From an uncultured Bacteroidales bacterium (lineage in GTDB: Bacteria; Bacillota_I; Bacilli_A; ML615J-28; CAG-698): a DNA stretch of 64,000 nucleotides. The stretch is from NCBI GenBank assembly GCA_964516425.1, contig CAZFAM010000001.1:60865-124864 (forward strand), given 5' to 3'. Of the stretch, positions 5,828 through 50,500 are shown in pieces. Numbering within the stretch: the first letter of the stretch is position 1; every line of letters begins with the position of its first letter. The notes below the pieces were generated by a model. The model did no database searches. It saw only the letters and a program-made list of their open reading frames with translations, and was not told the origin of the DNA. A program made the translations under genes and the position numbers.

Positions 5828-6748
5828 ATGAATATAATCCATTTGAAATATGCTATAGTAGTCGCTGAATCTGGTTCTATAAGTAAAGCATCAGAAAAAT
5901 TATTTGTTGCACAACCTAATATTTCGCGTGCGATTAAAGAATTAGAAAATGATTTAAATATTACTATTTTTGGAAGAGATTCTAAGGGGATGGTTTTAAC
6001 TCCTGAAGGCGGGCGTTTTATTAACTATGGTAAACGAGTATTATCCCAAATTGATGATATGGAAAAGATGTTCAAGCAAAAGAGTAAAAAGGATACATTT
6101 TCAATTGCTGTTCCAAGAGCAAGCTATATTTCAAAGGCTTTTGTGGAATTTAGTAAAATTCTTGAACAAAAATCAGGTGTTGAATTATTATATCGTGAAA
6201 CAAATGCATACCGTGTTTTAAATACTGTTTTAAATGAAGGATATAAATTAGGAATTATTCGTTATTCAAAAATTCATGAAGCTAATTTTAAGTCATATTT
6301 TGAACAGAAGGATTTAAAAAGTGTTCTTATAAATAGTTTTAAATATCGTTTGTTATTTAATGAAAATTCTGTATTAGCAAAAAAAGAAGTAATTACAGAA
6401 GAAGATTTAAAGGATTTAGTATTGATAACGCATAATGATCCTTATGTTCCATCGCTTCCTATGTCGCAAGTTGCTAATGAAGAATTAAATACAGAATCGC
6501 AAAAAACTATTTATTTATTTGAAAGAGCTACTCAATTTGACATCTTAGAATCTAATCCTAATGCTTACATGTGGGTTTCGCCAATTCCTAACGATTTAGT
6601 AGAAAAGTATCACTTAATTCAAAGAGAGTGCAATATAAAAGATAAGGTATATAATGATGTATTAATATATCGCTCTACCTATACATTAAGCCCATATGAC
6701 AAATTATTCTTAGAAAAACTTATTGAAAGTAAAAAACACATTCAATAA
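5828..6748 (+). CDS. LysR-family transcriptional regulator
   Basis: The N-terminal HTH is LysR-type (IIHLKYAIVVAESGSISKASEKLFVAQPNISRAIKELE...). The protein is about 300 aa with a C-terminal substrate-binding fold. Confidence 0.85.
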   Translation: MNIIHLKYAIVVAESGSISKASEKLFVAQPNISRAIKELENDLNITIFGRDSKGMVLTPEGGRFINYGKRVLSQIDDMEKMFKQKSKKDTFSIAVPRASYISKAFVEFSKILEQKSGVELLYRETNAYRVLNTVLNEGYKLGIIRYSKIHEANFKSYFEQKDLKSVLINSFKYRLLFNENSVLAKKEVITEEDLKDLVLITHNDPYVPSLPMSQVANEELNTESQKTIYLFERATQFDILESNPNAYMWVSPIPNDLVEKYHLIQRECNIKDKVYNDVLIYRSTYTLSPYDKLFLEKLIESKKHIQ

Positions 6749-6754
6749 ATAAAA

Positions 6755-6789
6755 GTATATCGATATTGATATATCGATATACTTTTTTT
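6755..6789 (+). terminator. 12-bp-arm inverted repeat plus T-run; likely a terminator between lysR and rex
   Basis: GTATATCGATAT-tgat-ATATCGATATAC forms a perfect 12-bp stem and is followed by ttttttt. Confidence 0.55.
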
Positions 6790-6842
6790 GTATTTTACTT
6801 TATTACGAAAATAATATATAATATATTTAGGTGGGTTAATAT

Positions 6843-7490
6843 ATGTGTAGCAAAAAGATTCCTAAGCATGTTATAGAGAGAATTCCTCTGTATTTAAATT
6901 ATCTAGAAAAACTAGATGAGAAAAATGTAATTATGATATCCTCAAAAACAATTTCGGATAATTTAGGGCTAGGGGAAGTACAAGTTAGAAAAGATTTAAA
7001 TCTAGTTTCTGGAAACGGTAAACCTAAAATAGGATATGTTTTAAAAGATTTAAAATATGATTTAGAACAATTAATTAGAAGTGAACAATATACAAATATC
7101 ATTATAATTGGTGCTGGAAACATTGGTGAAGCTTTAGCAAAAAACTTTCAATATGAAAAACCTCAATTTAGATTATTAGGTATTTTTGATAATGATTCAC
7201 AAAAAATCAATTCCAGTATTATCAATATTAAGGTAAAAGACATAAGCACATTACCTTATTTTTGTGCACATAATCGCATTGATATTGCTATTATTTGTGT
7301 TCCTGGTAATAATGCCCAAGCGGTTTGTGATATTGTAGTTGAAAATAATATAAAAGGAATATTAAATTTTACGAATACATATTTAAACGTTAATAAAAAT
7401 ATTAATGTAAGAAATGTTGATATAACATCATTACTTACAATGATAGCAATCGAAATAAATAATAAAGGAGAAAATATAAATGGAAAATAA
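6843..7490 (+). CDS. rex: redox-sensing transcriptional repressor Rex
   Basis: N-terminal winged-helix region (IPKHVIERIPLYLNYL...VQVRKDLN) plus a Rossmann NADH-binding motif (IIIGAGNIGEALA). Its stop overlaps the adhE start. Confidence 0.85.
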   Translation: MCSKKIPKHVIERIPLYLNYLEKLDEKNVIMISSKTISDNLGLGEVQVRKDLNLVSGNGKPKIGYVLKDLKYDLEQLIRSEQYTNIIIIGAGNIGEALAKNFQYEKPQFRLLGIFDNDSQKINSSIINIKVKDISTLPYFCAHNRIDIAIICVPGNNAQAVCDIVVENNIKGILNFTNTYLNVNKNINVRNVDITSLLTMIAIEINNKGENINGK

Positions 7491-10119
7491 TTATATGATT
7501 GTGGATAGTTTAGAAAAATTATCAATTAAAATGGAAGAAATTAGAAATGCTCAAAAATTATTCGCTACTTATACACAAGAACAAGTGGATAAAATCTTTT
7601 TAGCTGCTTCACTTGCCGCTAACAATGCTCGTATCCCATTAGCTAAAATGGCAGTTGAAGAAACAGGAATGGGAGTAGTAGAAGATAAAGTTATTAAAAA
7701 TCATTATGCATCAGAATATATTTATAATAAGTATCGTAATGAAAAAACTTGTGGTGTTATTGAAGAAGATAAAGCATATGGATTTAAAAAAATAGCGGAA
7801 CCAATTGGGGTTATTGCAGCCGTAATTCCCACAACAAATCCAACATCAACAGCTATTTTTAAAACATTATTAGCATTAAAAACAAGAAATGGTATAATTA
7901 TTAGCCCTCACCCAAGAGCTAAACAATCAACAATTGCCGCTGCAAAAATAGTGTTAGAAGCAGCTGTAAAAGCAGGAGCTCCAGAAGGAATTATCGGATG
8001 GATTGATGTACCATCACTTGATTTAACAAATACTGTAATGCGTGAATCGGATATTATTTTGGCAACAGGTGGACCAGGAATGGTAAAAGCTGCTTATTCA
8101 TCAGGAAAACCTGCTTTAGGTGTAGGTGCTGGTAATACTCCCGCAATTATTGATGAAAGTGCAGATGTGGTATTAGCAGTAAACTCTATAATTCATTCTA
8201 AAACGTTTGATAATGGTATGATTTGTGCTTCTGAACAATCAGTAATTGTTTTGGAAAGTATATATGAACAAGTTAAAAATGAGTTTTTAATGAGAGGATG
8301 TTATTTCTTAAATCCTGAAGAATTAGAAAAAGTAAGAAAAACCATTATTATTAATGGTGCGTTAAATTCAAAAATTGTTGGTCAAAAAGCAGTTGATATT
8401 GCTAAACTAGCAAATGTAAAAGTTCCTGAAGGAACAAAAATATTAATTGGTGAAGTTGAATCAGTAGAATTAAGTGAAGAGTTCGCTCATGAAAAATTAT
8501 CTCCAGTTCTTGCAATGTATTGTGCAAAAGACATTCAAGATGCTTTTGCAAAAGCGGAACACTTAATTGCGGATGGAGGATATGGACACACATCATCAAT
8601 TTATTTAAATACAATTACAAAACAAGAAGTATTAAATGAATTCGCAAATAGAATGAAAACATGCAGAATATTAGTTAATACGCCATCATCACAAGGTGGA
8701 ATTGGTGATTTATATAACTTTAAACTTGCTCCATCACTTACATTAGGTTGTGGATCATGGGGTGGAAATAGTGTTTCTGAAAATGTAGGTGTAAAACATT
8801 TATTAAATATTAAAACAGTTGCAGAAAGAAGGGAAAATATGCTTTGGTTTAGAGCTCCAGAAAAAGTTTATTTAAAGAAGGGATGTTTACCTGTAGCTTT
8901 AAGTGAATTAAAAGATGTAATGAATAAAAAACGTGTATTCATTGTGACAGATAGTTTCTTATATTCAAATGGTAATGCTAATCCAATTATAAACAAATTA
9001 AAAGAAATGAATATGGAATATACTGTTTTCTTTGATGTAGAACCAGACCCAACATTAGCTTGTGCTAAAAAAGGTGCTGAACAAATGAAATCATTTAAAC
9101 CAGATACTATTATTGCTTTAGGTGGCGGTTCTGCGATGGACGCTGCTAAAATTATGTGGGTTTTATATGAACATCCAGAAGTTGATTTCCTAGATATGGC
9201 AATGCGTTTTATGGATATTCGTAAACGTATATATACATTCCCTCATATGGGTGATAAAGCATATTTTATTGCCGTTCCAACATCTGCCGGAACTGGTTCT
9301 GAAGTTACACCATTTGCGGTTATAACAGAAGAAACAACAGGTGTTAAATATCCTTTAGCTGATTATGAATTACTTCCAAAGATGGCAATTATTGATGCTG
9401 ATTTCCATATGACAGCTCCAAAAGGATTAACAGCTGCATCAGGTATTGATGCTGTTACACATAGCTTAGAAGCATATGCATCAATTATGGCTACAGATTA
9501 TACTGATGGTTTAGCATTACGTTCATTAAAAATGATATTTGAATATTTGCCTCGTGCTTATAATAATGGTGCAAATGATGTAGAGGCTCGTGAAAAAATG
9601 GCAAATGCAGCTACAATGGCTGGTATGGCATTCGCTAATGCCTTTTTAGGGGTATGTCATTCAATGGCACATAAATTAGGAGCTTTCCATCATTTACCTC
9701 ATGGTGTGGCTAATGCTTTAATGATTGATGAAGTAATTAGATTTAATTCATGCCCAGCACCAACAAAAATGGGAACATTCTCACAATACAGTCATCCACA
9801 TACATTAGAAAGATATGCGGAAGTTGCTGATTATTTGAACTTGGGTGGTAAAACAGCTGAAGAAAAAGTTAAGAATTTAATAAAAGCAATTGACGAGTTG
9901 AAAGCCCAAATTGGTATTAAATCAACAATTCAAGAATATGTTCCTAATGAACAAGATTTCTTAAATCGTTTAGATGCAATGGTTGAACAAGCATTTGATG
10001 ACCAATGTACTGGTGCGAACCCTAGATATCCATTAATGAGTGAAATTAAACAAATGTATTTAAACGCTTATTATGGTAAAGAATTTGTGGAAAAGGCAAT
10101 GCCTAAAAAAAATAAATAG
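7480..10119 (+). CDS. adhE: bifunctional acetaldehyde-CoA dehydrogenase / iron-containing alcohol dehydrogenase AdhE
   Basis: 879 aa. The N-terminal aldehyde dehydrogenase half is joined to a C-terminal Fe-ADH half (GGGSAMDAAK, histidine metal ligands). The true start could instead be the Met at 7495. Confidence 0.92.
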   Translation: MENNYMIVDSLEKLSIKMEEIRNAQKLFATYTQEQVDKIFLAASLAANNARIPLAKMAVEETGMGVVEDKVIKNHYASEYIYNKYRNEKTCGVIEEDKAYGFKKIAEPIGVIAAVIPTTNPTSTAIFKTLLALKTRNGIIISPHPRAKQSTIAAAKIVLEAAVKAGAPEGIIGWIDVPSLDLTNTVMRESDIILATGGPGMVKAAYSSGKPALGVGAGNTPAIIDESADVVLAVNSIIHSKTFDNGMICASEQSVIVLESIYEQVKNEFLMRGCYFLNPEELEKVRKTIIINGALNSKIVGQKAVDIAKLANVKVPEGTKILIGEVESVELSEEFAHEKLSPVLAMYCAKDIQDAFAKAEHLIADGGYGHTSSIYLNTITKQEVLNEFANRMKTCRILVNTPSSQGGIGDLYNFKLAPSLTLGCGSWGGNSVSENVGVKHLLNIKTVAERRENMLWFRAPEKVYLKKGCLPVALSELKDVMNKKRVFIVTDSFLYSNGNANPIINKLKEMNMEYTVFFDVEPDPTLACAKKGAEQMKSFKPDTIIALGGGSAMDAAKIMWVLYEHPEVDFLDMAMRFMDIRKRIYTFPHMGDKAYFIAVPTSAGTGSEVTPFAVITEETTGVKYPLADYELLPKMAIIDADFHMTAPKGLTAASGIDAVTHSLEAYASIMATDYTDGLALRSLKMIFEYLPRAYNNGANDVEAREKMANAATMAGMAFANAFLGVCHSMAHKLGAFHHLPHGVANALMIDEVIRFNSCPAPTKMGTFSQYSHPHTLERYAEVADYLNLGGKTAEEKVKNLIKAIDELKAQIGIKSTIQEYVPNEQDFLNRLDAMVEQAFDDQCTGANPRYPLMSEIKQMYLNAYYGKEFVEKAMPKKNK

Positions 10120-10130
10120 GAGGGAACAAC

Positions 10131-10880
10131 ATGAATTATGAAAAAATAATTGCAGTTAGAAAAGCAAAGACAATATATAAAGATAATGATAATTGTGTTA
10201 AACTATTTGATGCTGATTATTCAAAGGCTGATATTTTAAATGAAGCTTTAAATCAAGCTAGAGTTGAAGAATTACCAATTAATATTCCTGGTATTAAAAG
10301 TGTAACAACAATTGATGGTAAATGGGCTATAATAACTGAATATATAGAAGGAAAAACACTTGCTCAATTAATGGAAGAACATCCGGAAAAGAAAGATGAG
10401 TATTTAGAACAATTTGTGGATTTACAAATTATGGTTCAAAAAAATGTAAGTCCATTATTGACAAAATTAAAAGATAAAATGAATCGAAAAATTAAGTTAG
10501 CAGATATTAATTCTACAACTAAATACGATTTACATACAAGATTAGAAAGTATGCCTAAAGATAATAGTTTATGTCATGGTGATTTTAACCCTTCAAATAT
10601 TATTATTGGTAATGATGGTAAAGCATATATTATTGACTGGTCACATGCAACTCAAGGAAATCCTTGTGCTGATGTTGCTAGAACATATTTATTATTCACA
10701 TTAGCAAATGAAAAAGAACAAGCTGAAAAGTATTTAGATTTATTCTGTAAAAAAACAAAACATACAAAGAAAGATGTTCAAAGATGGTTACCAATCGTTG
10801 CTGCATCTCAATCTGTTAAAGGGAATAAAGAAGAAAGGGAATTTTTATTATCCTGGGTTAATGTAGTAGATTACGAATAA
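10131..10880 (+). CDS. phosphotransferase-family (APH/choline-kinase-fold) small kinase
   Basis: Contains the Brenner catalytic motif HGDFNPSNIII and IIDWSHA. It lies 12 nt after adhE and 18 nt before the sensory hydrogenase gene. Confidence 0.6.
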   Translation: MNYEKIIAVRKAKTIYKDNDNCVKLFDADYSKADILNEALNQARVEELPINIPGIKSVTTIDGKWAIITEYIEGKTLAQLMEEHPEKKDEYLEQFVDLQIMVQKNVSPLLTKLKDKMNRKIKLADINSTTKYDLHTRLESMPKDNSLCHGDFNPSNIIIGNDGKAYIIDWSHATQGNPCADVARTYLLFTLANEKEQAEKYLDLFCKKTKHTKKDVQRWLPIVAASQSVKGNKEEREFLLSWVNVVDYE

Positions 10881-10898
10881 AAAACATAGAGGTGCAAT

Positions 10899-12578
10899 AT
10901 GGGGAAGTATTTAACTTTTAAAAAATCAAATTGTAAAAATTGTTATAAATGTATAAGAAATTGTCCAATTAAAGCTATTAGGTTTTCCGCAAATCAAGCC
11001 TTAATAGAAGATGATGAATGCATATTGTGTGGTCAGTGTTTTGTCTCATGCCCCCAAAATGCGAAAGAAATTGTGGACGGAATAGAAAAAGCAAAATTAT
11101 TGATTGAAACTTCACATAAAGTAATTGCGAGTATTGCACCTTCTTTTATTGCTAATTTTAATGGCATAGGTATTAATAATTTAAAAACAGCTTTAAAAAA
11201 AATTGGATTTTATGATGTTGAAGAAACAGCTGTTGGTGCTACATATGTAAAGAATGAATATGATAGAATATTAAAAGAAGAACATCCTAATATATTGATT
11301 TCTTCTTGTTGTCATTCTATTAACTTATTAATTCAAAAACATTTTCCACAAGCTTTAAAGTATTTAGCAAAAGTAATGAGTCCAATGCAAGCCCATTGCA
11401 ATAGTATTAAGAAGCGTTATCCAGACGCAAAAACAATTTTTATTGGTCCTTGTGTTGCCAAAAAAGATGAAGGCGATCGTTATAAAGGAATAGTAGATTG
11501 CGTATTAACTTTTGAAGAATTATCTAAATGGTTAAATGAAAAAAATATTGTTATCGATAATGAACCATTTGAAGAAACAGAAAAAGGTAAAACAAGACTA
11601 TTTCCAACAACAGGGGGCATTTTAAAAACAATGGCATGTGATAATCCAGATTATAATTATATGGCTATTGATGGTGTTACTAATTGTATTGATGCATTAA
11701 AAGATATAGTTGATGGAAAAATAAAAAACTGTTTTATTGAAATGTCAGCGTGTGTTGGTAGCTGTGTAGCTGGACCAATAATTGAAAAGAAACATTATTC
11801 ATTTGTGCAAGATTATTTATTAGTAAACAATTATGCTGGTAAAAAAGATTTTAATGTTCAAAATGAAGATAGTGAGACATATGTTAAAACATTTGATCCA
11901 ATTTATGTAAAAAAGGATATGCCAACAGATTATGAAATAATGCAAATATTAAAGCAAATGGGAAAAACAAAGAAAAGTGATGAACTTAATTGTGGTAGTT
12001 GTGGCTATAATACATGTCGTGATAAGGCTATTGCTATATACCAAGGTAAAGCTGAAATATCAATGTGTTTACCTTTCTTAAAAGAAAAAGCAGAAAGTTT
12101 TTCTGATTGTATTGTTAATAATACTCCTAATGCTTTAATTGTGTTGAACGAAATGTTTGAGGTCCAACAAATCAATGCTTCCGCAAAACAATTATTCAAT
12201 ATTCGTCATGAATCAGATATATTAGGTGAACAAATAGTGAGATTATTAGATCCTATACCTTTTATAAAAGTATTAGATTCTAAACAAAATTTAATTAATA
12301 AAAAAATATATTTATCAGATTATAAAAAATATGTGGAAGAAACTATAATTTATGATGACACATATCATTTGTTAATATGTTTATTACGTGATATTACTGA
12401 AATGACATTAGAAAAAGCAAAAAAAGAAGAAATCAGTAAACAAACAGTAGAAATTGCAGACAAAGTCGTTAACAAGCAAATGCGTATTGTACAAGAAATA
12501 GCTTCTTTATTAGGTGAAACAACTGCAGAAACAAAAATAGCATTAACAAAATTAAAGGAGTCAATTAAGAATGAATAA
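10899..12578 (+). CDS. putative sensory [FeFe]-hydrogenase with C-terminal PAS domain (HydS/HfsB-like)
   Basis: Two N-terminal ferredoxin-type CxxCxxCxxxCP motifs. The H-cluster domain has variant motifs: SSCCHSI (L1), GPCVAKKDE (L2) and EMSACVGSCVAGP (L3). A C-terminal PAS-like domain of about 150 aa follows. RBS agaggtg. Confidence 0.75.
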   Translation: MGKYLTFKKSNCKNCYKCIRNCPIKAIRFSANQALIEDDECILCGQCFVSCPQNAKEIVDGIEKAKLLIETSHKVIASIAPSFIANFNGIGINNLKTALKKIGFYDVEETAVGATYVKNEYDRILKEEHPNILISSCCHSINLLIQKHFPQALKYLAKVMSPMQAHCNSIKKRYPDAKTIFIGPCVAKKDEGDRYKGIVDCVLTFEELSKWLNEKNIVIDNEPFEETEKGKTRLFPTTGGILKTMACDNPDYNYMAIDGVTNCIDALKDIVDGKIKNCFIEMSACVGSCVAGPIIEKKHYSFVQDYLLVNNYAGKKDFNVQNEDSETYVKTFDPIYVKKDMPTDYEIMQILKQMGKTKKSDELNCGSCGYNTCRDKAIAIYQGKAEISMCLPFLKEKAESFSDCIVNNTPNALIVLNEMFEVQQINASAKQLFNIRHESDILGEQIVRLLDPIPFIKVLDSKQNLINKKIYLSDYKKYVEETIIYDDTYHLLICLLRDITEMTLEKAKKEEISKQTVEIADKVVNKQMRIVQEIASLLGETTAETKIALTKLKESIKNE

Positions 12579-13743
12579 TTTGTGCTCTGATATTGGCTAT
12601 AAAAGTATTAATCATTTTGGAGAAGAATTATGTGGAGATCATATTGAATGTGTTGAACAAGAAGATGGTTCCACAATTCTTGTTTTAGCAGATGGTATGG
12701 GCAGTGGAGTAAAAGCAAGTATTCTTTCAACTTTAACATCGAAAATTATTTCCACAATGATTTCTGAAGGCTTATCACTTGAGTCTTGTGTGGAAACAAT
12801 AGCTGCTACTTTACCAATATGTTCTGTTAGAGGAGTTGCCTATTCCACTTTCTCTATTATTCATTTAATTAAAAATGAAGAAGTAGAATTGATTCAATAC
12901 GATAATCCTTTAATAATCTTTTTAAGAAATGGTGAAGTATTTGATTATCCCAAAACAGAAATTGTAATTGGCGGTAAGAAAATATTTAAATCAATTATTA
13001 AATTACAAGAAAATGATTTGATTGCTGCGATGAGTGATGGATGTCCTTATGCAGGAAAAGATAATTTATATAATTATAAATGGAATATAGAAGAAATATC
13101 TGAATATTTAGTGAGTGCTAATTGCGGTGGATATACAGCTAAAACATTGGCAACAATGATAGTTAATGAATGTGATAGATTATATGGCAATAAACCAACA
13201 GATGATGCTACAGCGTGTGTTATAAAAATTAGAAAACGCGAGCAAGTGAATATTTTGTTTGGTCCTCCATCGGATAAAAATGATTGTGAGCGAATGCTTT
13301 CATTGTTTTTATCAAAAGAAGGAAAACATATCGTTTGTGGTGGTACAACATCCGCATTAACCGCAAAATATTTAGGTAAAAAAATCAATACGAATTTTGA
13401 TAGTGCTTCAAATGATATACCACCAATATCAGAAATTGAAGGTTTAGATTTGGTGACAGAAGGTGTAGTGACAATGAATCGAGTTGTGGAATACGCTAAG
13501 GATTATGTTGAAGATAATAAAAGATATGATGAATGGTGTTTTAATAGAGATGGTGCTTCATTACTTAGCAGAATGTTATTTGAAGAAGCAACTGATATAA
13601 ATCTAATTGTGGGTAAGGCAATCAATCCCGCTCACCAAAATCCTAATCTACCTATTAATTTCAATTTGAAGATGAGTATTGTGGGAGAATTATCAAAATA
13701 TTTAAAAAAGATGGGGAAAACAGTTAAAGTAAACTATTTTTAG
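12571..13743 (+). CDS. PP2C-type Ser/Thr phosphatase (SpoIIE/RsbU-like) with extra C-terminal domain
   Basis: Contains the PP2C metal-binding motif LADGMGSG and later aspartates (DGCPY, TDDATACV). Its start overlaps the hydrogenase stop (ATGAATAA). Confidence 0.7.
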   Translation: MNNLCSDIGYKSINHFGEELCGDHIECVEQEDGSTILVLADGMGSGVKASILSTLTSKIISTMISEGLSLESCVETIAATLPICSVRGVAYSTFSIIHLIKNEEVELIQYDNPLIIFLRNGEVFDYPKTEIVIGGKKIFKSIIKLQENDLIAAMSDGCPYAGKDNLYNYKWNIEEISEYLVSANCGGYTAKTLATMIVNECDRLYGNKPTDDATACVIKIRKREQVNILFGPPSDKNDCERMLSLFLSKEGKHIVCGGTTSALTAKYLGKKINTNFDSASNDIPPISEIEGLDLVTEGVVTMNRVVEYAKDYVEDNKRYDEWCFNRDGASLLSRMLFEEATDINLIVGKAINPAHQNPNLPINFNLKMSIVGELSKYLKKMGKTVKVNYF

Positions 13744-13752
13744 GTGAAGTGA

Positions 13753-15177
13753 ATGAAAAAATTTGATACTAATGTTCAGTATTTAAAATATCGAGTATTA
13801 ACAGAAGTTGCTATAGAAACATGGAATAATACGTTGCAAGAAAATGTGTTAGATATTCCTAAAAGAATAATACCCGGAAAAGTTCCCACAATGCGTTGTT
13901 GTGTATATAAAGAAAGAGCAATAATCCAGGAACGTGTTAAAATGGCATTAGGTGGAAATAAAAAAAATCATAATATAATCGAAGTTATAGATATTGCTTG
14001 TGATGAATGTCCAATGAGTGGTTATAATGTAACAACCGCATGTCGTGGGTGTTTAGCACATCGTTGTATGGATGCGTGTAAGAAAAATGCAATTACAATG
14101 GATAACAATCATGTTGCTCACATTGATAAAACAAAATGTATAGAATGTGGAGCATGTGCCAAGGTGTGTCCATATAGTGCTATTTATAATTCAAAGCGCC
14201 CTTGTGAAGCAGCTTGTAAAGTAAAAGCAATTTCTATGGGGGAAGATCATGCTGCTACAATTAATGATGAAAAATGTATTGCTTGTGGTGCATGTGTTTA
14301 TCAATGTCCTTTCGGAGCAATTTCTGATAAATCATATATTACTAATGCTATTGATATTATAAAGAAAAGTGAAGGAAATAAAAATTATAAAGTATATGCC
14401 TTAGTTGCTCCATCAATATCTAGTCAATTTGTTTATGCAAAATTAGGTCAAGTAATAACTGCGTTAAAGGTATTAGGATTTTATGATGTTATAGAAGTTG
14501 CATTAGGCGCTGATATGGTGGCAAATAAAGAAGCAAAAGAATTGGTTGAAAAGCAGTTTTTAACAAGTAGTTGTTGTCCATCTTTTGTTAAATATGTTCA
14601 AAATGAATTTCCTACTCTTGCCCCATATATTTCTCATAATTTATCGCCAATGGCAACGATTGCCAAATATATGAAGGAAAAAGAAGAAAATATTAAAATT
14701 ATATTTATAGGACCTTGTACCTCAAAAAAGAAAGAAATACAATTAGATTCTGTTAAAGAATATGTTGATGTTGTTTTAACATTTGAGGAATTACAAGCTT
14801 TAATTGATAGTAAAAATATTGATATTACAACACTTGAAGAAACAAAAATTAATGATGCTTCATATTTTGGCCGCATTTTTGCAAAATCAGGAGGATTAAT
14901 AGAAGCAGTTAAACAAAGTTTAGTAGAAAATAATTTAACTGATTTCAATTTAAAACCGATTGCTTGTGATGGTATTGAATCATGTAAAAAAACTTTATTA
15001 TTAAAGAATAAAAATCTTTTAGATGCTAATTTTATTGAAGGTATGGCTTGCGTTGGTGGATGCAATGGTGGAGCAGGATGCTTGACTCATGGAGAAAAAA
15101 ATACATTTCTAGTTGATAAATATAGTAAAGAAGCCAATAAATCTACAATTAAGGAAGCAATAAATCAGAAGATATAA
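13753..15177 (+). CDS. [FeFe]-hydrogenase-like protein with multiple 4Fe-4S ferredoxin motifs (HfsD / group-C/D-like)
   Basis: Cys-rich N-terminus (CDECP..C..C), two CxxCxxCxxxCP motifs and H-cluster motifs TSSCCPSF, GPCTSKKKE and EGMACVGGCNGGAGC. RBS aggtgaagtg. Confidence 0.7.
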   Translation: MKKFDTNVQYLKYRVLTEVAIETWNNTLQENVLDIPKRIIPGKVPTMRCCVYKERAIIQERVKMALGGNKKNHNIIEVIDIACDECPMSGYNVTTACRGCLAHRCMDACKKNAITMDNNHVAHIDKTKCIECGACAKVCPYSAIYNSKRPCEAACKVKAISMGEDHAATINDEKCIACGACVYQCPFGAISDKSYITNAIDIIKKSEGNKNYKVYALVAPSISSQFVYAKLGQVITALKVLGFYDVIEVALGADMVANKEAKELVEKQFLTSSCCPSFVKYVQNEFPTLAPYISHNLSPMATIAKYMKEKEENIKIIFIGPCTSKKKEIQLDSVKEYVDVVLTFEELQALIDSKNIDITTLEETKINDASYFGRIFAKSGGLIEAVKQSLVENNLTDFNLKPIACDGIESCKKTLLLKNKNLLDANFIEGMACVGGCNGGAGCLTHGEKNTFLVDKYSKEANKSTIKEAINQKI

Positions 15178-15202
15178 TATAGATTAATATGAAATAAGAA
15201 AA

Positions 15203-15236
15203 AGATGTAGAGTTATTGGCTCTACATCTATTTTTG
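15203..15236. terminator. bidirectional rho-independent terminator between convergent genes
   Basis: A perfect 10-bp stem (agatgtagag with ctctacatct) flanks the loop ttattgg and is followed by atttttg. Confidence 0.7.
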
Positions 15237-15255: not shown

Positions 15256-16593
15256 TTAATTATACACTAATTCATAATTAGGATGGCAATATCCAGAAAT
15301 TGTATTATAGTCTAAAGAGTATGTTCTTTGTGCAACCATATTAGAAGTATTTCCTTCAATTGTATATACATTTTCATTATCTGCTCTAACTACAATACCA
15401 ATATGGCTTGCTCCATTTTCGCCAAAAATAATTAAATCTCCAGGAACAGGAGTATATTCTTCTTTAAGAAAGAAGCGGTCAATTATTTTGAAATTTTTTT
15501 GAAATACAGTTACGGAAATGCTTCTAGGAATAATATGTTTTGAAATTCCCGCATTGTTTGCACACCAAGAAACAAATGTTGCACACCACGCTTCATAATT
15601 ACAATAATTCCATTCACCATATTTTGTGTCATTATTATTTGTTAATTCTCTATATCCTTCTTCAGCTAATGCAACTTCTAAAAGTTTTGTTACATAATCT
15701 CGTTTTCGATAACCAGTTACTTCAACAATTATTTTTCCTGTTGTGATTTTGTTTGATGAATCTTTTGATGAAATAGTAACTATTGCTTTCCCTGGTTGAA
15801 TTCCCATAAATAGTCCTGTATCGGAAATCATTAAGATATCTTCATTATTGCAAGCATAATGGTATCGTTGTAGATTATTTGCATCAACAATCGTTAATTG
15901 TTCATCTTTACTGGCATCAATAATGAAATTATTGTCTTCGAAATAAGTAATTAACGGCGTATTATCAGGTTCTCCACTTGTTGTTTTATCATTACTTTGC
16001 AAACCAACATAAACTATTGTTTCCCCAATGTTACTTGGATATTTGATTTGTTTAACATAAACTTTGGCTTGTCCATTTTTTAATGCTTTTATTTTATAAT
16101 CAGATGTTAATTCTAACACAGTTTCATCAGAAACTGAAAATTCAAATTCCTCAATACTTGTAGCTCCAACGCTAGCCATATTTTCAAGTTTTAAATCTAA
16201 ATATTGGCCAATTAGTAAACCATTAGTATTAAGTTCAAAACGTAAAATACTTTGTTTATAGTTATTGCTATCATTTACATTTACTGTAAAATAAGCGATA
16301 ATTGATTCATCTTGATTACTAATTTTAATAATAGCTGTTCCACCATCTAAACCAGTAACTGAGTCTTTATCAATTGCAATAATTGATGAAGTAGAAGTGA
16401 TTAATAAATCACTATAGTCTCCAATACCATCATAACTGATAGGAATAAATTCTGTTTCACCTATATTAATTGCAACTGATTCATAATCTAATTCAATAAA
16501 TGTAATGTCTTGGCTTTGAGGATTGTTTGTACATCCATACACCAATAAACAAAGAATAAAAACTAATAAAATGTAAATTTTTTTCATACGCAC
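15256..16593 (-). CDS. lipoprotein with Ig-like (Big_2-type) repeats and C-terminal CHAP-domain peptidoglycan hydrolase
   Basis: Signal peptide plus lipobox LLVYGC. The C-terminus carries a CHAP catalytic Cys (WCATFVSWC) and His (GASHIGIVV). Confidence 0.7.
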   Translation of the reverse strand: MRMKKIYILLVFILCLLVYGCTNNPQSQDITFIELDYESVAINIGETEFIPISYDGIGDYSDLLITSTSSIIAIDKDSVTGLDGGTAIIKISNQDESIIAYFTVNVNDSNNYKQSILRFELNTNGLLIGQYLDLKLENMASVGATSIEEFEFSVSDETVLELTSDYKIKALKNGQAKVYVKQIKYPSNIGETIVYVGLQSNDKTTSGEPDNTPLITYFEDNNFIIDASKDEQLTIVDANNLQRYHYACNNEDILMISDTGLFMGIQPGKAIVTISSKDSSNKITTGKIIVEVTGYRKRDYVTKLLEVALAEEGYRELTNNNDTKYGEWNYCNYEAWCATFVSWCANNAGISKHIIPRSISVTVFQKNFKIIDRFFLKEEYTPVPGDLIIFGENGASHIGIVVRADNENVYTIEGNTSNMVAQRTYSLDYNTISGYCHPNYELVYN

Positions 16594-23277: not shown

Positions 23278-26200
23278 ATGAATAAAAAAACAATTTTTAA
23301 TCGCATGCTGCCTTTAATTATTGCCTTAGCAGTTATTATCGTTGTAGCACTTGGTGTCACAATTTTTTCTGCTGATAAATCTAATCCTAGTATTTCAGAT
23401 GCAGAGCAATCTTATTTGAATGTGAATTTGGGTAAGAGCGAATTTGGATATGAACAAAAGGTAGATGTTAGTAAAGAAGAAGTTTACAACTCATTAAAAA
23501 CAAATAGTGGGTTAGCTTCTATTGTTAATAAACTTGACAAAGAAGCTTTAGCAAACACTAAAAATTCTGATGGTAAATCATATTATGCTGCTGCTAATGA
23601 TGATGTTGACGCTGTAAACAAAGCTGTTGAAGAAGCAATTTTCTCAAATGGATATGATGAAGAAGATTATCAAACTGATGAAGATTTAGCAACTGCTGGT
23701 GATAGCGTTAAAAGCTATAAGAAAACAATGAAATTGAATTATGGAATTGAAATTAGTGATAGTGCTGTAGATTATAAAGATGGAAAATTAATAATCGATG
23801 CTACAAAATGTCAAGCTTTATATGACTATTATGTATTAACATTAGCTAAAAAAGCTTATACAAGAGATGTATTAGGTAATGAACAAGTAGAAGCATTCGA
23901 AAAATATATTAAAGCTTATGCAGAATATTTAACTGAGTTACATAAATATAATAATGATGAAATTGATGATTCACCTTCTGAACCAACAAGTGAAGCAATC
24001 ATTGCATCTTCAAGTGTAGAATCAAATTATACAACAAATAACAATGATAGTTATTGGGTATTATTTACAAAATATTCTACTAAAGAACTTGCTGAAACAG
24101 CTTTATTACAAGTTGGTGTAAAAATCGTTTCAGTTACTGAAGATTCAAAAACAAGTAATGTATGGTTTGAATATCAAGGAATTGACCCTGAAACTGGTGA
24201 ACAATATGCGGATGAATATTATAAAGATTCTACAAATGAAGTTCATAGATTAGATCGTAATGAAGTGTTATTAAAGATGGTTGAGTTATATAATAATTCA
24301 GTTAAACAAGATGCTACTAAAACTCTTAAAGAAGGTGTTCATTACTCAGTTAAAACAATTACAAAAGCTGAATATGATGAATTATCTACTAATGAAAAGA
24401 ATTGGTATGTAGCTAATAGTGCTGAAGAAGACGCAACATATACTGCAGTAATTTTCGAAACTGAAGTTAAATTGGATGCAGATGGTGAAGTTGATAAAGA
24501 AAATACTTTAAATACTTTATATTATGAAAAAGCTGATTTATCAAATATTGATTCAAGTATTTTAACTTGGGTTAAGAGCTTAAATGGTGCTTATACTGAT
24601 GGTTCTACATGGGAAAAATCTTATACAACTGCTATTAAAAATAGCGGAAGTTATTATGTAATTGGTGCTAAATTATCAACTATTGAAGTTGATGATGTAG
24701 AAGATGTAATTGGTGTATTATATGATAAAGATGCATTCAAAGAAGATGGTACAATTGCTAAATTCGCATATGGAATTGCAACTATAGATGCTGAAGGTAA
24801 TGTAACATTTAATTATGAAAATAATAAATATTGGGATAAAGTAGTTGAATTATTAGATGGACAAGTAACAAGTACTAACATTGATAAGAAAATGGCTGCT
24901 TTAAGAAATGACCTAGGATTAACAATCTATGATGAAGAATTAGAAACAAGTTATATGGAAACATATACTTCTGACTATAAAGCAACTAAGAAATCAAACA
25001 AAACTGTTGTTGCAAAATTAAGTTGGAAAGATGAAGATAATAATAAGAAAGAATTCGAAATCACAGCAGATGAATTATATGCTGAATTAGAAAAAGTTTC
25101 TGGTGCGATGACTGCTATTGAAATTTATAGATATGAATATATGTTATATAGTAGTGATATGATTGATTATGGTAAATATGTAAATGGAAGTAGCTTAGAT
25201 AAATGTGTAATCATTACTGAATACGCATTAGCTAAAAAAGGAACTCAAGATCCAGTTACAGATTGGAAGAAAGTTTCAAGTGATGCAGTTGTTTCATTTG
25301 ATAAAATGGATGGAACAGTTGAATATGATGTTTTAGTTCGTACAAGAACTGATAAAAAAGATGCTAAGGTTACTGTATCTGATTTAGTTGCTAAAGCTAA
25401 AGATAATGAAAGCACTAAAACAACAATCGAAGTTACAGTTTCAAATGATGAAGATTTTGAAGATAATGAAACTAAATTTGCTGCATTACCAGAACAAATC
25501 AGTGCATTAAAGATTTACTTCACAAATGGTAATTTTGAAAGTTATGGATATGCAGCTGACTATGGTTGGAAAAACTTCATTAGAGATTATTTCAAACAAT
25601 ATTATGGAATTAATGTTGAAACAAATGATGATTTAAAATTATATTATATTTATGAAGACGCTACAGATAAATTGTCTGAAAGCATTGCTGAATTAACAGA
25701 TGAAGATTGGAACAATATTTATTTACCATACATGCAACAAATGTATGATCAATATTTCTCTGTAGATGCATTCCATTTCTTAATCTCAATTGATGATGAA
25801 GAAGGAAATAAAGTTGATTTACGTGATGCTTCTAATATGACTGCTGAACAAAAAGCTGCTATCGAAACATTATATAAACAAGTTGTTCAAATTTTAAATA
25901 AAGTAAAACCTAGTGAACAATCTACAATTTTAGATGAAATTGCAACAGCATTTGATGAGGCTCCAAGCTTTATTGATGGAAAAGGAACTACAACAGAAGA
26001 ACAACAAAATTATGTTGATAGTGCAACTTTAAATGGAAATAAATTATATTATAGTACTAAATTTGATTCTAGTTTAATTAACTATACAAAAGTTATTAGA
26101 GGTGTTTCAATTAAAGTTTCTGAATATAAAAACTTGGGTATATCTGTTAAGAAAGAAGATTTAGGAACTGTAACTCAAGGACAAATGGTTGAAGAATTTG

Positions 26201-26901
26201 AAAATGCATTAAAACAAATGTGGTTAGATAAAGAATCAAAAGAAGACGGAATGTTAAAAGGCGAATCTGTTGAAGAAAATGTATTATATGATACATACTT
26301 AGACAATAACAATGGTGAATTCTTAGTAACTGAATATGGATACCATGTATTAGTTGCTACTAAATTTACTGCTCGTTCTGTAAGTGAAAAGAAAGTAATT
26401 AAATTACCTACTCTAGAAGAAGTTAGACAATACGAATCTAATGATGAAGCATCTGAAGATTTAACTGATTTCCAAGAAGCTCAAATTAAAGCTTACTATA
26501 CAACAATTAAAGAAGCTGACTTTGAAAGCTCATATAAATATCAAATGGAAATTATGAGACAAGTATTATCTGATATGAATGCAGGTAAATTCACTTGGAA
26601 TGAAGCTACAACTTCTAATTTAGTTGAATTAATTGAATATTTAATTGAACAATATTATAGTGGTTTAACTTATGTTAAAAATGAATACACTACAGCTATG
26701 AATTATATGGAAATTGCATTAAATGCTAAATCATCATTTGATGCAGGATATGATAATATTACAGAAGCTAATTTAGCAATTATTATTAATGCTGCTAAGG
26801 CTGCTATTGCAAATGTAAATGTTAATAGTGGTGAATATAATTCAGTTCAAGTTAAAGAATTTAATGAATTAAAAGCTAAATTTGATGCTAAAATTGCATA
26901 A
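23278..26901 (+). CDS. giant (1207 aa) membrane-anchored extracytoplasmic protein with PrsA/parvulin-like foldase features
   Basis: N-terminal signal-anchor TM followed by a SurA_N/PrsA-like chaperone start. Near the C-terminus, QMVEEFENA...EFLVTEYGYHVLV matches the parvulin PPIase signature (MVxxFexA...fGyHiI). Confidence 0.5.
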   Translation: MNKKTIFNRMLPLIIALAVIIVVALGVTIFSADKSNPSISDAEQSYLNVNLGKSEFGYEQKVDVSKEEVYNSLKTNSGLASIVNKLDKEALANTKNSDGKSYYAAANDDVDAVNKAVEEAIFSNGYDEEDYQTDEDLATAGDSVKSYKKTMKLNYGIEISDSAVDYKDGKLIIDATKCQALYDYYVLTLAKKAYTRDVLGNEQVEAFEKYIKAYAEYLTELHKYNNDEIDDSPSEPTSEAIIASSSVESNYTTNNNDSYWVLFTKYSTKELAETALLQVGVKIVSVTEDSKTSNVWFEYQGIDPETGEQYADEYYKDSTNEVHRLDRNEVLLKMVELYNNSVKQDATKTLKEGVHYSVKTITKAEYDELSTNEKNWYVANSAEEDATYTAVIFETEVKLDADGEVDKENTLNTLYYEKADLSNIDSSILTWVKSLNGAYTDGSTWEKSYTTAIKNSGSYYVIGAKLSTIEVDDVEDVIGVLYDKDAFKEDGTIAKFAYGIATIDAEGNVTFNYENNKYWDKVVELLDGQVTSTNIDKKMAALRNDLGLTIYDEELETSYMETYTSDYKATKKSNKTVVAKLSWKDEDNNKKEFEITADELYAELEKVSGAMTAIEIYRYEYMLYSSDMIDYGKYVNGSSLDKCVIITEYALAKKGTQDPVTDWKKVSSDAVVSFDKMDGTVEYDVLVRTRTDKKDAKVTVSDLVAKAKDNESTKTTIEVTVSNDEDFEDNETKFAALPEQISALKIYFTNGNFESYGYAADYGWKNFIRDYFKQYYGINVETNDDLKLYYIYEDATDKLSESIAELTDEDWNNIYLPYMQQMYDQYFSVDAFHFLISIDDEEGNKVDLRDASNMTAEQKAAIETLYKQVVQILNKVKPSEQSTILDEIATAFDEAPSFIDGKGTTTEEQQNYVDSATLNGNKLYYSTKFDSSLINYTKVIRGVSIKVSEYKNLGISVKKEDLGTVTQGQMVEEFENALKQMWLDKESKEDGMLKGESVEENVLYDTYLDNNNGEFLVTEYGYHVLVATKFTARSVSEKKVIKLPTLEEVRQYESNDEASEDLTDFQEAQIKAYYTTIKEADFESSYKYQMEIMRQVLSDMNAGKFTWNEATTSNLVELIEYLIEQYYSGLTYVKNEYTTAMNYMEIALNAKSSFDAGYDNITEANLAIIINAAKAAIANVNVNSGEYNSVQVKEFNELKAKFDAKIA

Positions 26902-47589: not shown

Positions 47590-50500
47590 ATGGCAACAAA
47601 AAAAGAAGATACAAAAACTGCAACTTCAGTATTGAAAAAAAGGACTTCACCAGAAGATGGTGTAGCTACTAAAAGTACCTCAGCGTTAAAGAAAAGAGCA
47701 ATGCCTGATGCAAGTGCTGCTGTAAAAGATAATCCTACATTAAAAAAACGAACAGCTCCAGATGAAAATAAAGAAAGTTCTGTTTTAAAGAAAAGAACAG
47801 CACCAACCGAAGAAAAAGCAACGTCTATTTTAAATAAAAGAGTTGCTCCAGATGAAAATAAGGAAAGTTCTGTTTTAAAGAAAAGAACAGCACCAAGCGA
47901 AGACAAATCTGCGTCTATCTTAAAAAAGAGAGTTACTCCAGATGAAGGTAAGGAAAGTTCTGTTTTAAAGAAAAGAGTTTCACCAGTGGATGACATTACT
48001 TCATCAAGCTCTGTTTTAGCAAAAAAGAAAATAGAAAATGATGATTCGGAAAAAGTTTCTTCTGGAAAAAGTTCCTTAGATAAAATGCGTGAGCGAATTG
48101 CAGCTCAAAAAAAATTAGAACAAAATATGATGACACAACAAGTTCTTCGAAATCAAGAAAAAGATGGTTTACGTTCTAAATTAAATAAATTAAATAAAGA
48201 ACTTGCGGAAGAAGAAGTTATTGATACGCCAAAACAAAATATTAATTTCGACTTAAAGAGCGAAGCTTTAGAAACACAAAACAAGAAATTGAAACAAGAT
48301 GCTGAAAAATTAAAGAATCAATTACAGGCACTAATGACATTAGAATTTATGGATTTGAAAGTTTTAGATCCAAATAACTTAACATTGTCAAATGAATTTG
48401 TGGAAGCAATTAATAGCATTAAAACGCAAGTAGAATCTCAAAAAGATAAAGAAGAGCAGTCTTTAAAAGATGAATTACAATCATTGCAACTTGAACTTGA
48501 TAATTTACGTGCTAAAAATGAAGAGGCTAAAAAAGCAAGTGTTGTTATAAAGAGAGTTGCTGCTCAAACACAAAAAGCTTTAGATGAAGCTAAGAAAGCT
48601 ATTGAAGAACAAGAATCAAATGAAGTACGTAATTTTAAAGAAGAAATTCATAATCTTGAAACACAATTATTTAATAAAGAACAAGAATTAAAATCTCTTC
48701 AACAAGAAAAATCTACAATTGTGAAAGATAATGAAAAAGCAATTGCTTTATTAAAGAAATCACTTGAAAAAGAAATCGAAAATTTAAATAATAAAATTAA
48801 ATTACAAGATGATGACATTACTTTGAAAAATGATTTAAATGTTAAGTTACAAAATGAAACTTCTAAGTTTGAAGAGCAAATCTCATTATTGGAACAAAAG
48901 GTTAAAGAACTAGAAGAAAAAGGTAATAAAGATTTAGTTATTATTCAAGAAAAAGAACAATTGGAAAAGCGTTTAGAAGAACAAGCTGCTAAAATTGATA
49001 GTTTATTATTAGAATATCAAAAACAATTAGATGCAAAAGATAAAGAAATTGATGAATTACGTAATACAATTGTTACAAAAGAAAATGCATTAGCAAATTC
49101 TATCTCTAAAGATGAACTACTTGCTAAAGAAACTGAAATTTCATCATTAAAAGAACAATTAGATAATAGTATATCTAAAGATGAACTACTTGCTAAAGAA
49201 ACTGAAATTTCATCATTAAAAGAACAATTAGATAATAGTATATCTAAAGATGAACTACTTACTAAAGAAACTGAAATTTCATCATTAAAAGAACAATTAG
49301 ACAATAGTATATCTAAAGAAGAATTAAATAATAAAAATGATGAAATTGAAAGTTTAAAACAAGAGATTAAGGATTTAAATAAACAAATTAGTTCTGGAGT
49401 TAATGAAGAAAATTCTGTATTGGTTAAAGACTTACAAGATAAATGTGATCAGTATCAAAATTTATTATTAAGTGAAAGAAATAGTCATTTACAAGTTGAA
49501 CAAAAGTTATGTAATGATTTAGACAATTATAAAAATGAAATAAATGAGTTACAATCTAAAATTACATCTATGAGTTCTGATTATAGTCTTAATAGACTTC
49601 ACAATCAAATTGAGGCTATAGAATCTTATATTAATGATTTAAAGAATAATTCTCATAATGCTATTACAAATAATGCATACACTGAATATTATGATAAATT
49701 AATTGTTGCTTATAGAAATCAGGAAGAAAAAACATTAACAGAAATTAAGCGTCGCAATAATATTTTAAAATTATTACGTGATGAAAAAATTAAAGTTGCG
49801 GAAGTATTAAAACAAAATGGTAAAAATATTTCTTCTTTTGAAAAGCAAATTGATGAAATTAATGCGGTTATAAATTCTAATATTGAAGAATTACAATTAG
49901 ATAATTTACAAGATGTTGAACAACAAATCATTGCAAGCATTAAAGATGAATTAATGCAATATTGTGACAACATTAAAAATGAAGCTACAAAAGAATTAGA
50001 AAGAATAAACCAAAAATATGACTCTTCAAAATCAGTATCTGATTTAATTAATAATTATAATAACGATTATGAGCATATGATTAAAGCTTATGGAAATGAA
50101 GTTTCAAAATTGAATTTAGAACGCTCAATAAACAAAAGCCAAAATGTAGAAAATGTTATTGAAGAAAAATTGTTAATGGTAGAAAAACAGTATCGTATTA
50201 CTACTTTAGAAAGAGACAAAAAATTCAATGAAGTAATGGATAGGATACGTAAACAAAATTTTGAAATTGTAAGCGAAGAAATTAATAATCCATATATTTC
50301 TGTTGTTGGAAAAGAATATATTCGTAGCTTAAATCAGTACGCTACTATTAAGAAAAATATTTTAGATAAGTTAGAATTTGTTAAAACGCAATATAATAAC
50401 AATATTGAAAACATTAAAAACGAAGAGAATGATATAAATAAATTTAATGACAATATTAAAGAAAGTATTGCAATTCTTAATAATCAAACTGATTTAACTG

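Follow-up and report, generated by a model that had tools for sequence, protein, structure and literature searches.

A compact rex-adhE-kinase-hydS-pp2c-hydB operon matching the H2-responsive fermentation locus of Ruminococcus albus

Why should an NADH sensor, an ethanol-forming enzyme and a putative H2-sensing hydrogenase with its own phosphatase be encoded side by side? The question is raised by a locus on contig CAZFAM010000001.1 (assembly GCA_964516425.1) of an uncultured bacterium, of which a 64-kb stretch (the window) was analyzed. An earlier note on this DNA had seen in the locus a rex-adhE pair fused in one operon with a sensory [FeFe]-hydrogenase, a PP2C phosphatase and a kinase. The functional side of that proposal, a sensory hydrogenase, PP2C and kinase in an apparent single transcription unit with rex and adhE, is supported by our analysis. 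The operon is, however, not of a new kind but a reduced six-gene copy of a published type. With a probability of roughly three in four, it represents the 'high-H2 fermentation' operon known from Ruminococcus albus and present in Clostridium thermocellum, acting by the mechanism proposed below.

An open reading frame (ORF) check of the window located all six genes, rex-adhE-kinase-hydS-pp2c-hydB, on the + strand between 6843 and 15177, exactly where they had been placed before (aa, amino acids):

6843-7490, + strand: rex, 215 aa, cluster-type Rex of the NADH/NAD+-sensing winged-helix repressor family
7480-10119, + strand: adhE, 879 aa, bifunctional acetaldehyde-CoA/alcohol dehydrogenase
10131-10880, + strand: kinase gene, 249 aa, aminoglycoside phosphotransferase (APH)/choline-kinase fold, counterpart of Rumal_3402 and Cthe_0424
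10899-12578, + strand: hydS, 559 aa, group C (M2f-type) putative H2-sensing [FeFe] hydrogenase
12571-13743, + strand: pp2c, 390 aa, SpoIIE/RsbU-type PP2C Ser/Thr phosphatase with a C-terminal alpha/beta domain
13753-15177, + strand: hydB (protein 6), 474 aa, group B monomeric [FeFe] hydrogenase

The genes are closely packed. Junctions measure -11 nucleotides (nt) for rex/adhE, +11 for adhE/kinase, +18 for kinase/hydS, -8 for hydS/pp2c and +9 for pp2c/hydB; thus, the gaps of at most 12 nt or overlaps described previously apply to four of the junctions, but not to kinase/hydS. Translation signals reach into the preceding genes: the adhE ATG stands 7 nt past a GGAG within the 3' end of rex, and the ribosome-binding site of the kinase gene, GGAGGG, abuts or overlaps the adhE stop codon. 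At its ends the operon is marked by the following elements:

6751-6786: palindrome, a dyad ATATCGATA-N5-ATATCGATA with its core at 6757-6779, recognized by its hairpin and by its conservation in relatives
6794-6822, + strand: predicted sigma-70-like promoter, -35 TTTACT, 17-nt spacer, -10 TATAAT, 10 of 12 consensus positions
15203-15229: bidirectional intrinsic terminator, 12-bp stem, T-run on either strand, free energy (dG) -17.3 kcal/mol, z -6.3

Downstream of the predicted promoter, a ribosome-binding site (GGTGGG) precedes the rex ATG, and at the other end the terminator separates the operon from a convergent gene (15256-16593). The two hairpins that had been read as flanking terminators at 6755 and 15203 are both strong (dG -19.3 kcal/mol and z -7.1 relative to shuffled sequence for the upstream one), but the upstream hairpin is at the same time a conserved operator-like dyad. 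Rfam and tRNA scans of the window gave no match and hence no leader or riboswitch.

Internal promoters that uncouple a highly expressed adhE from low-abundance signalling genes, such that the six genes would not form one transcription unit, are very unlikely. Most relatives have room for such signals, with median gaps of 76 nt after rex and 92 nt after adhE, wider than the junctions of the window, and promoter-like hexamer pairs do occur inside the window genes. Yet these pairs number 69, as compared to 78 +/- 8.5 in shuffled sequences, an absence of enrichment that makes the scan uninformative, and the sole internal terminator-like site (9627-9642, within the adhE coding sequence) was rejected as being no better than chance (z -0.7 against shuffles). 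Neither a credible internal terminator nor promoter-like sites above shuffles, which the earlier note had named as fatal to its model, were thus found. The short or negative junctions and the overlap of ribosome-binding sites with upstream stop codons also argue for coupling, as does the finding that the eight genes of the R. albus counterpart show similar read counts and fold-changes (PMC6776011).

The sensory part of the operon is represented by HydS (protein 4). It comprises two [4Fe-4S] clusters, an H-domain, a Cx2Cx4Cx16C cluster, a PAS domain and a conserved C-terminal helix, with profile matches to PF02906, to a Fer4 dicluster (residues 8-55) and to PF04060 (residues 363-392). Residues of HydS and protein 6 were mapped onto Clostridium pasteurianum CpI, those of HydS via the alignment of its paralogue, and are given in CpI numbering. 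HydS keeps the four cysteines that ligate the H-cluster (C300, C355, C499 and C503, within the motifs SSCCHS, GPCVAKK and EMSACVGSC). Four of the six positions C299, M353, M497, E279, E282 and S319 are altered (M497 to Ser, M353 to Gly, E279 to Tyr, E282 to Ile), C299 and S319 being kept, which bears out the earlier description of non-canonical H-cluster motifs in this protein. In group C the ligating cysteines are retained, while the second-sphere residues C299, M353 and M497 and the proton-pathway residues E279, E282 and S319 are altered (PMC10055695), a pattern of changes that the window protein shows in part; an atypical C-terminal [4Fe-4S] cluster is found in this group, and a PAS domain following it separates group C from group D (PMC13104023). 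The PAS domain claimed previously is itself below the curated Pfam cut-offs in the window protein (PAS_9, 21.9 versus 27 bits; PAS_8, 20.5 versus 21.8 bits), but PF00989 (PAS) is matched by 47 of 50 HydS homologues, with a best E-value (E) of 1.1e-7.

TmHydS of Thermotoga maritima shares with the window protein the N-terminal [4Fe-4S] clusters, the H-domain, the C-terminal [4Fe-4S] cluster and the PAS domain, as well as the exchanges of M497 for Ser and M353 for Gly and the loss of the proton-pathway glutamates. Unlike TmHydS, which has Ala131 at the position of C299, the window HydS retains Cys299 and Ser319, and it also differs in its genomic partners (PP2C, kinase, adhE and rex). Conservation within HydS is highest in a helix after the PAS domain formed by the C-terminal ~50 residues (about 508-559; window 12420-12575), which is nearly invariant in 50 homologues with an identity of about 65% elsewhere. 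This invariance, along with an 8-nt hydS/pp2c overlap that is identical in 76 of 76 loci, suggests that the C terminus of HydS serves as a docking helix for PP2C.

The PP2C protein has its phosphatase domain in residues 1-222 (PF07228, 56.8 bits, cut-off 25). Its predicted structure (predicted local distance difference test, pLDDT, 82) gave SpoIIE, RsbU and RsbX as top Foldseek matches with a probability of 1.00, and the metal-binding residues D41, D156, D211 and D212 are invariant in 48 sequences. Residues 225-390 fold in the model, with good confidence (pLDDT 88), into an alpha/beta domain of their own that contains the invariant motifs GKHIxCGGTTS and NPAHQNPxLPINF; this domain matches no Pfam family, and a structure search returned only generic Rossmann-like matches.

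The two electron-consuming enzymes are readily assigned. AdhE is recognized by the equivalog model NF010378 (1395 bits, cut-off 951), has Aldedh, Fe-ADH and ADH_Fe_C domains and is 79-84% identical to the syntenic adhE products of relatives. Protein 6, previously taken for merely a hydrogenase-like Fe-S protein, matches TIGR04105, the model for monomeric [FeFe] hydrogenases, with 562 bits (cut-off 450) and retains C299, C300, E279, E282, S319, C355, M497, C499 and C503. Among the CpI positions mapped only M353 is changed, to Gly, as is also the case in the group B enzyme CpIII (PMC10055695). Its sequence marks protein 6 as a group B enzyme of the catalytic type whose proton pathway is intact. 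It corresponds to HydA2/HfsD and is likely the ferredoxin-dependent H2-evolving output enzyme. The sixth gene is thus a regulated catalytic output and stands outside the signalling module. The earlier note held prototypical catalytic group A hydrogenases with intact motifs to be incompatible with its proposal; protein 6, which keeps all mapped residues but M353, scores as group B, and the motifs of protein 4 are altered.

Is this arrangement peculiar to the window? A HydS scan with one genome per species returned at least 579 relatives, and the best 80 (63-67% identical), which are metagenome-assembled genomes of gut and rumen Clostridia, were analyzed. Genes upstream of hydS were counted in the 47 species-level loci with at least 5 kb of sequence upstream of it. 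Twenty of them have rex-adhE-kinase and ten adhE-kinase; the kinase gene alone is present in six, rex-kinase in two, rex alone in three, and none of the three genes in six. The adhE-hydS linkage thus recurs in related genomes, adhE lying directly upstream of kinase and sensor in 30 of 47 loci, and the kinase gene is present in 38. Because the hydS/pp2c overlap is universal and the group B hydrogenase gene comes next after pp2c at 54 of 63 loci, hydS-pp2c-hydB is the conserved core, to which rex, adhE and the kinase gene are frequent additions.

Compactness varies among the relatives. The same six-gene form as in the window is present in locus L081 (a Logan contig, PP2C 95% identical), while L083 (labelled Coprobacillus sp., PP2C 73% identical) has a tightly packed eight-gene form. 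The difference consists of two tandem genes for thioredoxin-like [2Fe-2S] ferredoxins (79-87 aa, PF01257) that lie between the kinase gene and hydS in 76 of 80 relatives (for example, L006:9489-9728 and 9732-9995; L083:7824-8078 and 8065-8316). The pair has been lost from the window and from L081, the closest relative. The existence of a six-gene form shows that these ferredoxins are dispensable in at least one lineage.

The closest published counterpart is found in R. albus 7, where Rumal_3400-3407 are annotated as a CoA-binding (Rex-like) protein, an iron alcohol dehydrogenase, an aminoglycoside phosphotransferase, two hypothetical proteins, a PAS/PAC sensor, SpoIIE and a hydrogenase large subunit (PMC6776011, Table S7). 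Compared by annotation, all six window genes are represented by the same product types in the same order. Differences concern the two small genes Rumal_3403 and Rumal_3404, which the window lacks and which probably correspond to the ferredoxin genes, the tighter junctions of the window with its rex overlapping adhE, and the catalytic hydrogenase, which is classed as group A1 in R. albus (PMC6776011) while the window enzyme scores as group B (TIGR04105). All eight R. albus genes, with similar read counts, were down 90-130-fold in co-culture with an H2-consuming partner (Greening 2019, PMC6776011); a 111-fold drop is cited for the locus. HydS has been proposed to sense H2 and to induce AdhE and the ferredoxin-only hydrogenase in this organism (PMC6776011).

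A second counterpart is the co-regulated 'redox region' Cthe_0422-0430 (Clo1313_1799-1791) of C. thermocellum (PMC3848806, PMC3990059). In locus-tag order, the strand being unstated, it likewise contains rex, adhE, aminoglycoside phosphotransferase, sensory hydrogenase and SpoIIE genes; unlike in the window, two annotated genes (Cthe_0425 and Cthe_0426) account for the sensor, and what follows downstream is a trimeric NADH-linked hydrogenase of the HydABC type (Cthe_0428-0430) in place of the monomeric group B enzyme. The hfs operon of this species is Clo1313_1796-1793, and deletion of hfsB raises ethanol (PMC5707799). The hfsABCD operons of Thermoanaerobacterium saccharolyticum and T. thermosaccharolyticum encode the PAS sensor HfsB, the PP2C HfsC and the ferredoxin-linked hydrogenase HfsD in the same order as in the window, and they are genetically linked to ethanol yield and adhE expression (PMC5707799, PMC11837493). 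HfsA is, however, a hydrogenase-large-subunit-like fragment in the place taken by the APH-fold kinase in the window (PMC11837493), and the operon is unlinked to rex and adhE, the latter being Tsac_0416 beside the divergently transcribed tsac_0415 (PMC5707799). The statement that no such direct operon fusion had been described is therefore not tenable, given the same gene order with expression data in R. albus and the same products in Cthe_0422-0430.

How might such an operon work? The predicted promoter region at 6794-6822 would drive six coupled or near-coupled genes up to the terminator at 15203. Two predicted electron sinks are encoded, AdhE (from NADH to ethanol) and the group B [FeFe] hydrogenase (from reduced ferredoxin to H2), together with putative regulators, namely a Rex-family NADH/NAD+ sensor, a group C HydS with a PP2C encoded by an overlapping gene, and an APH-fold kinase. 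By homology with R. albus, the operon would be on at high H2 and off, by ~100-fold, once a partner organism removes H2. Accumulated H2 blocks the reoxidation of NADH via the bifurcating hydrogenase, whereupon NADH goes to ethanol and reduced ferredoxin to H2 via the monomeric enzyme (PMC6776011). We propose that H2 is bound by HydS at an H-cluster that is slow and non-catalytic, and that the state of HydS is relayed via the PAS domain and the invariant C-terminal helix to PP2C. PP2C and kinase would then set the phosphorylation of a putative target that controls the operon or the hydrogenase, while Rex would contribute the NADH/NAD+ input; a likely operator for one of these inputs is the conserved dyad, ~60 nt before the predicted start of transcription. 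The direction of signalling may be deduced from Thermoanaerobacterium and C. thermocellum, where losing hfsB increases both ethanol and adhE expression, but only in strains that still have hfsC and hfsD (PMC5707799, PMC11837493), and where overexpression of hfsD alone reproduces the high-ethanol phenotype (PMC11837493). These phenotypes are consistent with H2-free HydS restraining a positive PP2C/hydrogenase branch.

One candidate for the phosphorylated target is AdhE itself, as put forward in the earlier note, such that kinase and PP2C would tune ethanol formation post-translationally. The two genes are adjacent with coupled translation signals, and adhE-kinase adjacency is common among relatives (30 of 47 loci); moreover, in hfs mutants of T. 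saccharolyticum NADH-linked alcohol dehydrogenase activity was up without a matching increase in aldehyde dehydrogenase activity, which the authors took as a post-transcriptional hint (PMC5707799). Yet the sequence offers no evidence of a phospho-site, the nearest solved relatives of the kinase act on small molecules, 8 of 47 loci have kinase-hydS-pp2c but no adhE next to it, and another 9 of 47 have hydS-pp2c-hydB preceded by neither the kinase gene nor adhE. Furthermore, the hfs operon affects ethanol although it lies apart from adhE and encodes no APH kinase (PMC5707799, PMC11837493), and high ethanol is obtained by overexpression of hfsD alone (PMC11837493). Since there are clusters lacking an adjacent adhE, and since regulation in R. 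albus takes place at the transcript level (~100-fold; PMC6776011), phosphorylation of AdhE is unsupported and, in our view, highly improbable.

Alternatively, the module might control protein 6 post-translationally or within a complex, effects on adhE and ethanol being secondary and mediated by the NADH/NAD+ ratio and Rex. This model is favored by the strong conservation of the hydS-pp2c-hydB core, which exceeds that of the rest of the cluster (76 of 76 loci share the overlap, and hydB adjoins pp2c in 54 of 63), and by the requirement for hfsD, and its sufficiency upon overexpression, for high ethanol in Thermoanaerobacterium (PMC5707799, PMC11837493). It is nevertheless unlikely as a complete explanation because all eight R. 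albus transcripts, including that of the sensor itself, shift ~100-fold with H2 (PMC6776011), which requires a transcriptional output and makes a purely post-translational effect on the hydrogenase insufficient.

Several points weigh against assigning the window operon to the high-H2 fermentation type with the mechanism outlined above. The literature still calls H2 sensing 'putative' for all group C enzymes (PMC10055695, PMC13104023), and the window HydS may be more active than the characterized sensor TmHydS because it keeps Cys299, which is Ala there. The six window genes look co-transcribed on the strength of their spacing and of the R. albus example. The two ferredoxins of most relatives are missing: the kinase-hydS gap (10881-10898) is only 18 nt long, and tblastn detected no homologue in the 64 kb. 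Signalling or electron delivery in the window organism may therefore differ in detail. Canonical Rex boxes of either consensus form (TTGTGAA-N4-TTCACAA, or TTGTTAA-N4-TTAACAA in clostridia) show no excess over shuffles in the whole window at up to 3 mismatches, and the best match upstream of rex and in the internal junctions (10 of 14 specified positions) equals background; control of the promoter by Rex thus stays putative. Finally, the kinase has its nearest solved structures in choline kinase LicA (E 9e-7) and in hygromycin and aminoglycoside kinases. Since it is closer to small-molecule than to protein kinases, the view that it acts with PP2C on one and the same protein is an assumption.

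The nature of the kinase deserves closer consideration. It is assigned to PF01636 (APH fold; E 6.5e-15), and its catalytic Lys (VKLF), HGDxxxxN and IDW motifs are kept in 47 homologues. A small-molecule kinase that is merely co-located, PP2C being partnered by a different, unlinked kinase, would account for the structural relationships just mentioned and for matches to Pkinase (20.8 bits, cut-off 31.7) and to NCBIfam models that remain below threshold. However, the APH/ELK fold also includes true protein kinases, namely the CotS, RIO and Bud32 families, and these three are also among the weak matches of the window protein. In addition, the gene occupies the same position in R. albus, C. thermocellum and 38 of 47 relatives, and in R. 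albus its expression changes together with that of the sensor gene (PMC6776011). Mere co-location is thus distinctly unlikely, and the label 'protein kinase' is a putative one, drawn from the conserved pairing with a protein phosphatase.

Which protein, then, connects H2 sensing to transcription? The window Rex is a bona fide family member (NF003995, 201 bits, cut-off 126; PF06971 and PF02629 domains) that aligns to solved Rex structures with E 1.6e-37 and retains GAGNIG (GxGxxG) and FD. It shares the recognition helix LGEVQVRKDL and the wing SGxGKPKIGY with all 30+ cluster-linked Rex proteins, which lack the ASQIR(K/Q)DL helix and the FGxFGxxGxGY wing of canonical Rex. Among cluster-linked Rex proteins the DNA-binding domain is 45-69% identical and the NAD(H) domain 28-53%; overall, the window Rex shares just 30-41% identity with the Rex proteins of the 80 related loci, as compared to 64-84% for the other five proteins. 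Judged by these residues, cluster Rex is a distinct subfamily with changed DNA contacts. At 9 of 11 loci that lack rex and start with adhE, perfect clostridial Rex boxes (TTGTTAAAATATTAACAA) are present upstream of adhE. Taken together, the sequences suggest that cluster Rex is a dedicated paralogue with an operator of its own. In R. albus a second Rex, Rumal_1252, is encoded elsewhere in the genome and unchanged in co-culture (PMC6776011); such a separate housekeeping Rex fits with cluster Rex being a distinct paralogue.

A candidate operator is the dyad at 6751-6786, centred ~60 nt upstream of the predicted transcription start. L081, L083-85 and L013 carry it unchanged, and L006, L012, L004, L018 and L072 deviate from it by 1-2 mismatches; L081 and L083 also share the -10 region GAAAATAATATATAAT. 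Of 88 sites of the octamer TATCGATA in 1.19 Mb of loci, 36 lie no more than 250 nt before the first gene of the cluster, as compared to 1.3 expected, and the octamer tracks a particular gene order, being present at 25 of 30 rex-first loci and at none of 28 loci in which adhE, kinase or hydS comes first. In GC-richer loci the consensus TATCGATA-N6-TA(C/T)CGATA (TAYCGATA) is located between a separate terminator and an extended -10 and is not followed by a T-run, and in L083 the dyad is preceded by a terminator of its own. We therefore rejected the idea that the dyad is a terminator only; it is best read as a putative promoter-proximal operator that may also terminate the upstream LysR gene. An exact TATATCGATAT palindrome is found elsewhere in the window only at 50777-50788, within an ORF of 1275 aa, probably by chance. 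With at most one mismatch the window contains 9 copies versus 3.9 expected, a number reached in 6 of 100 shuffles.

It is tempting to speculate, though doubtful enough to be no more than a working model, that cluster Rex is a dedicated paralogue, that the dyad TATCGATA-N6-TAYCGATA is its operator or that of an H2-responsive regulator, and that Rex is the most plausible target of the kinase and phosphatase. Some rex-led loci (L001, L006 and L043) carry a symmetric Rex-box variant, (T/A)TGATAAAATATTATCAA, ~40-60 nt upstream of rex, near the -10 and beside the TATCGATA dyad; L001 has a hybrid Rex-box form, TTGTTAAAATATTATCAA. This variant rather than the dyad could be the real operator of cluster Rex.

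Directly upstream of the operon, outside the coordinates of the earlier note, lies a further gene:

5828-6748, + strand: LysR-type regulator gene (PF00126, HTH_1, E 1.6e-19)

At 35 of 61 related loci with sufficient sequence, a LysR homologue immediately precedes the cluster on its strand, whichever cluster gene leads (for example, L006:4275-5198 and L083:2613-3539; also in L081), and may be a further regulator of the system. As the protein that binds the dyad it is less supported, the octamer being present at 6 of 10 rex-first loci without LysR and at none of 13 LysR-bearing loci without rex. Elsewhere in the window, two + strand ORFs of 1207 and 1275 aa (23278-26901 and 47590-51417) without Pfam match at E 1e-5 sit among housekeeping genes for UvrB, MnmA, RecD2, FeoB and a UvrD-type helicase. 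Among the related loci, the Firmicute-type operon was also found in bins labelled Methanocorpusculum, Paludibacteraceae, Acidiphilium, Sphaerochaetaceae and Alistipes senegalensis (L002, L016, L031, L056 and L059), most likely mis-binned or mislabelled contigs.

Operons of this type decide how electrons are routed in a fermenter, that is, to H2 and acetate or to ethanol, and they bear on interspecies hydrogen transfer, on methane output in gut and rumen and on the engineering of ethanol yield. While the linkage of adhE with the sensor and its transcriptomic support had already been published, our study adds that this linkage is widespread (30 of 47 related species-level genomes), that a minimal version of six genes, lacking the two small ferredoxins, occurs, and that a candidate cis-element (the dyad) and a candidate regulator (cluster Rex) for the step from H2 sensing to transcription are now amenable to testing. 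If the proposed roles of cluster Rex and the dyad hold true, they would close the gap between the HydS/PP2C/kinase pathway and DNA binding and account for the ~100-fold auto-induction by H2.

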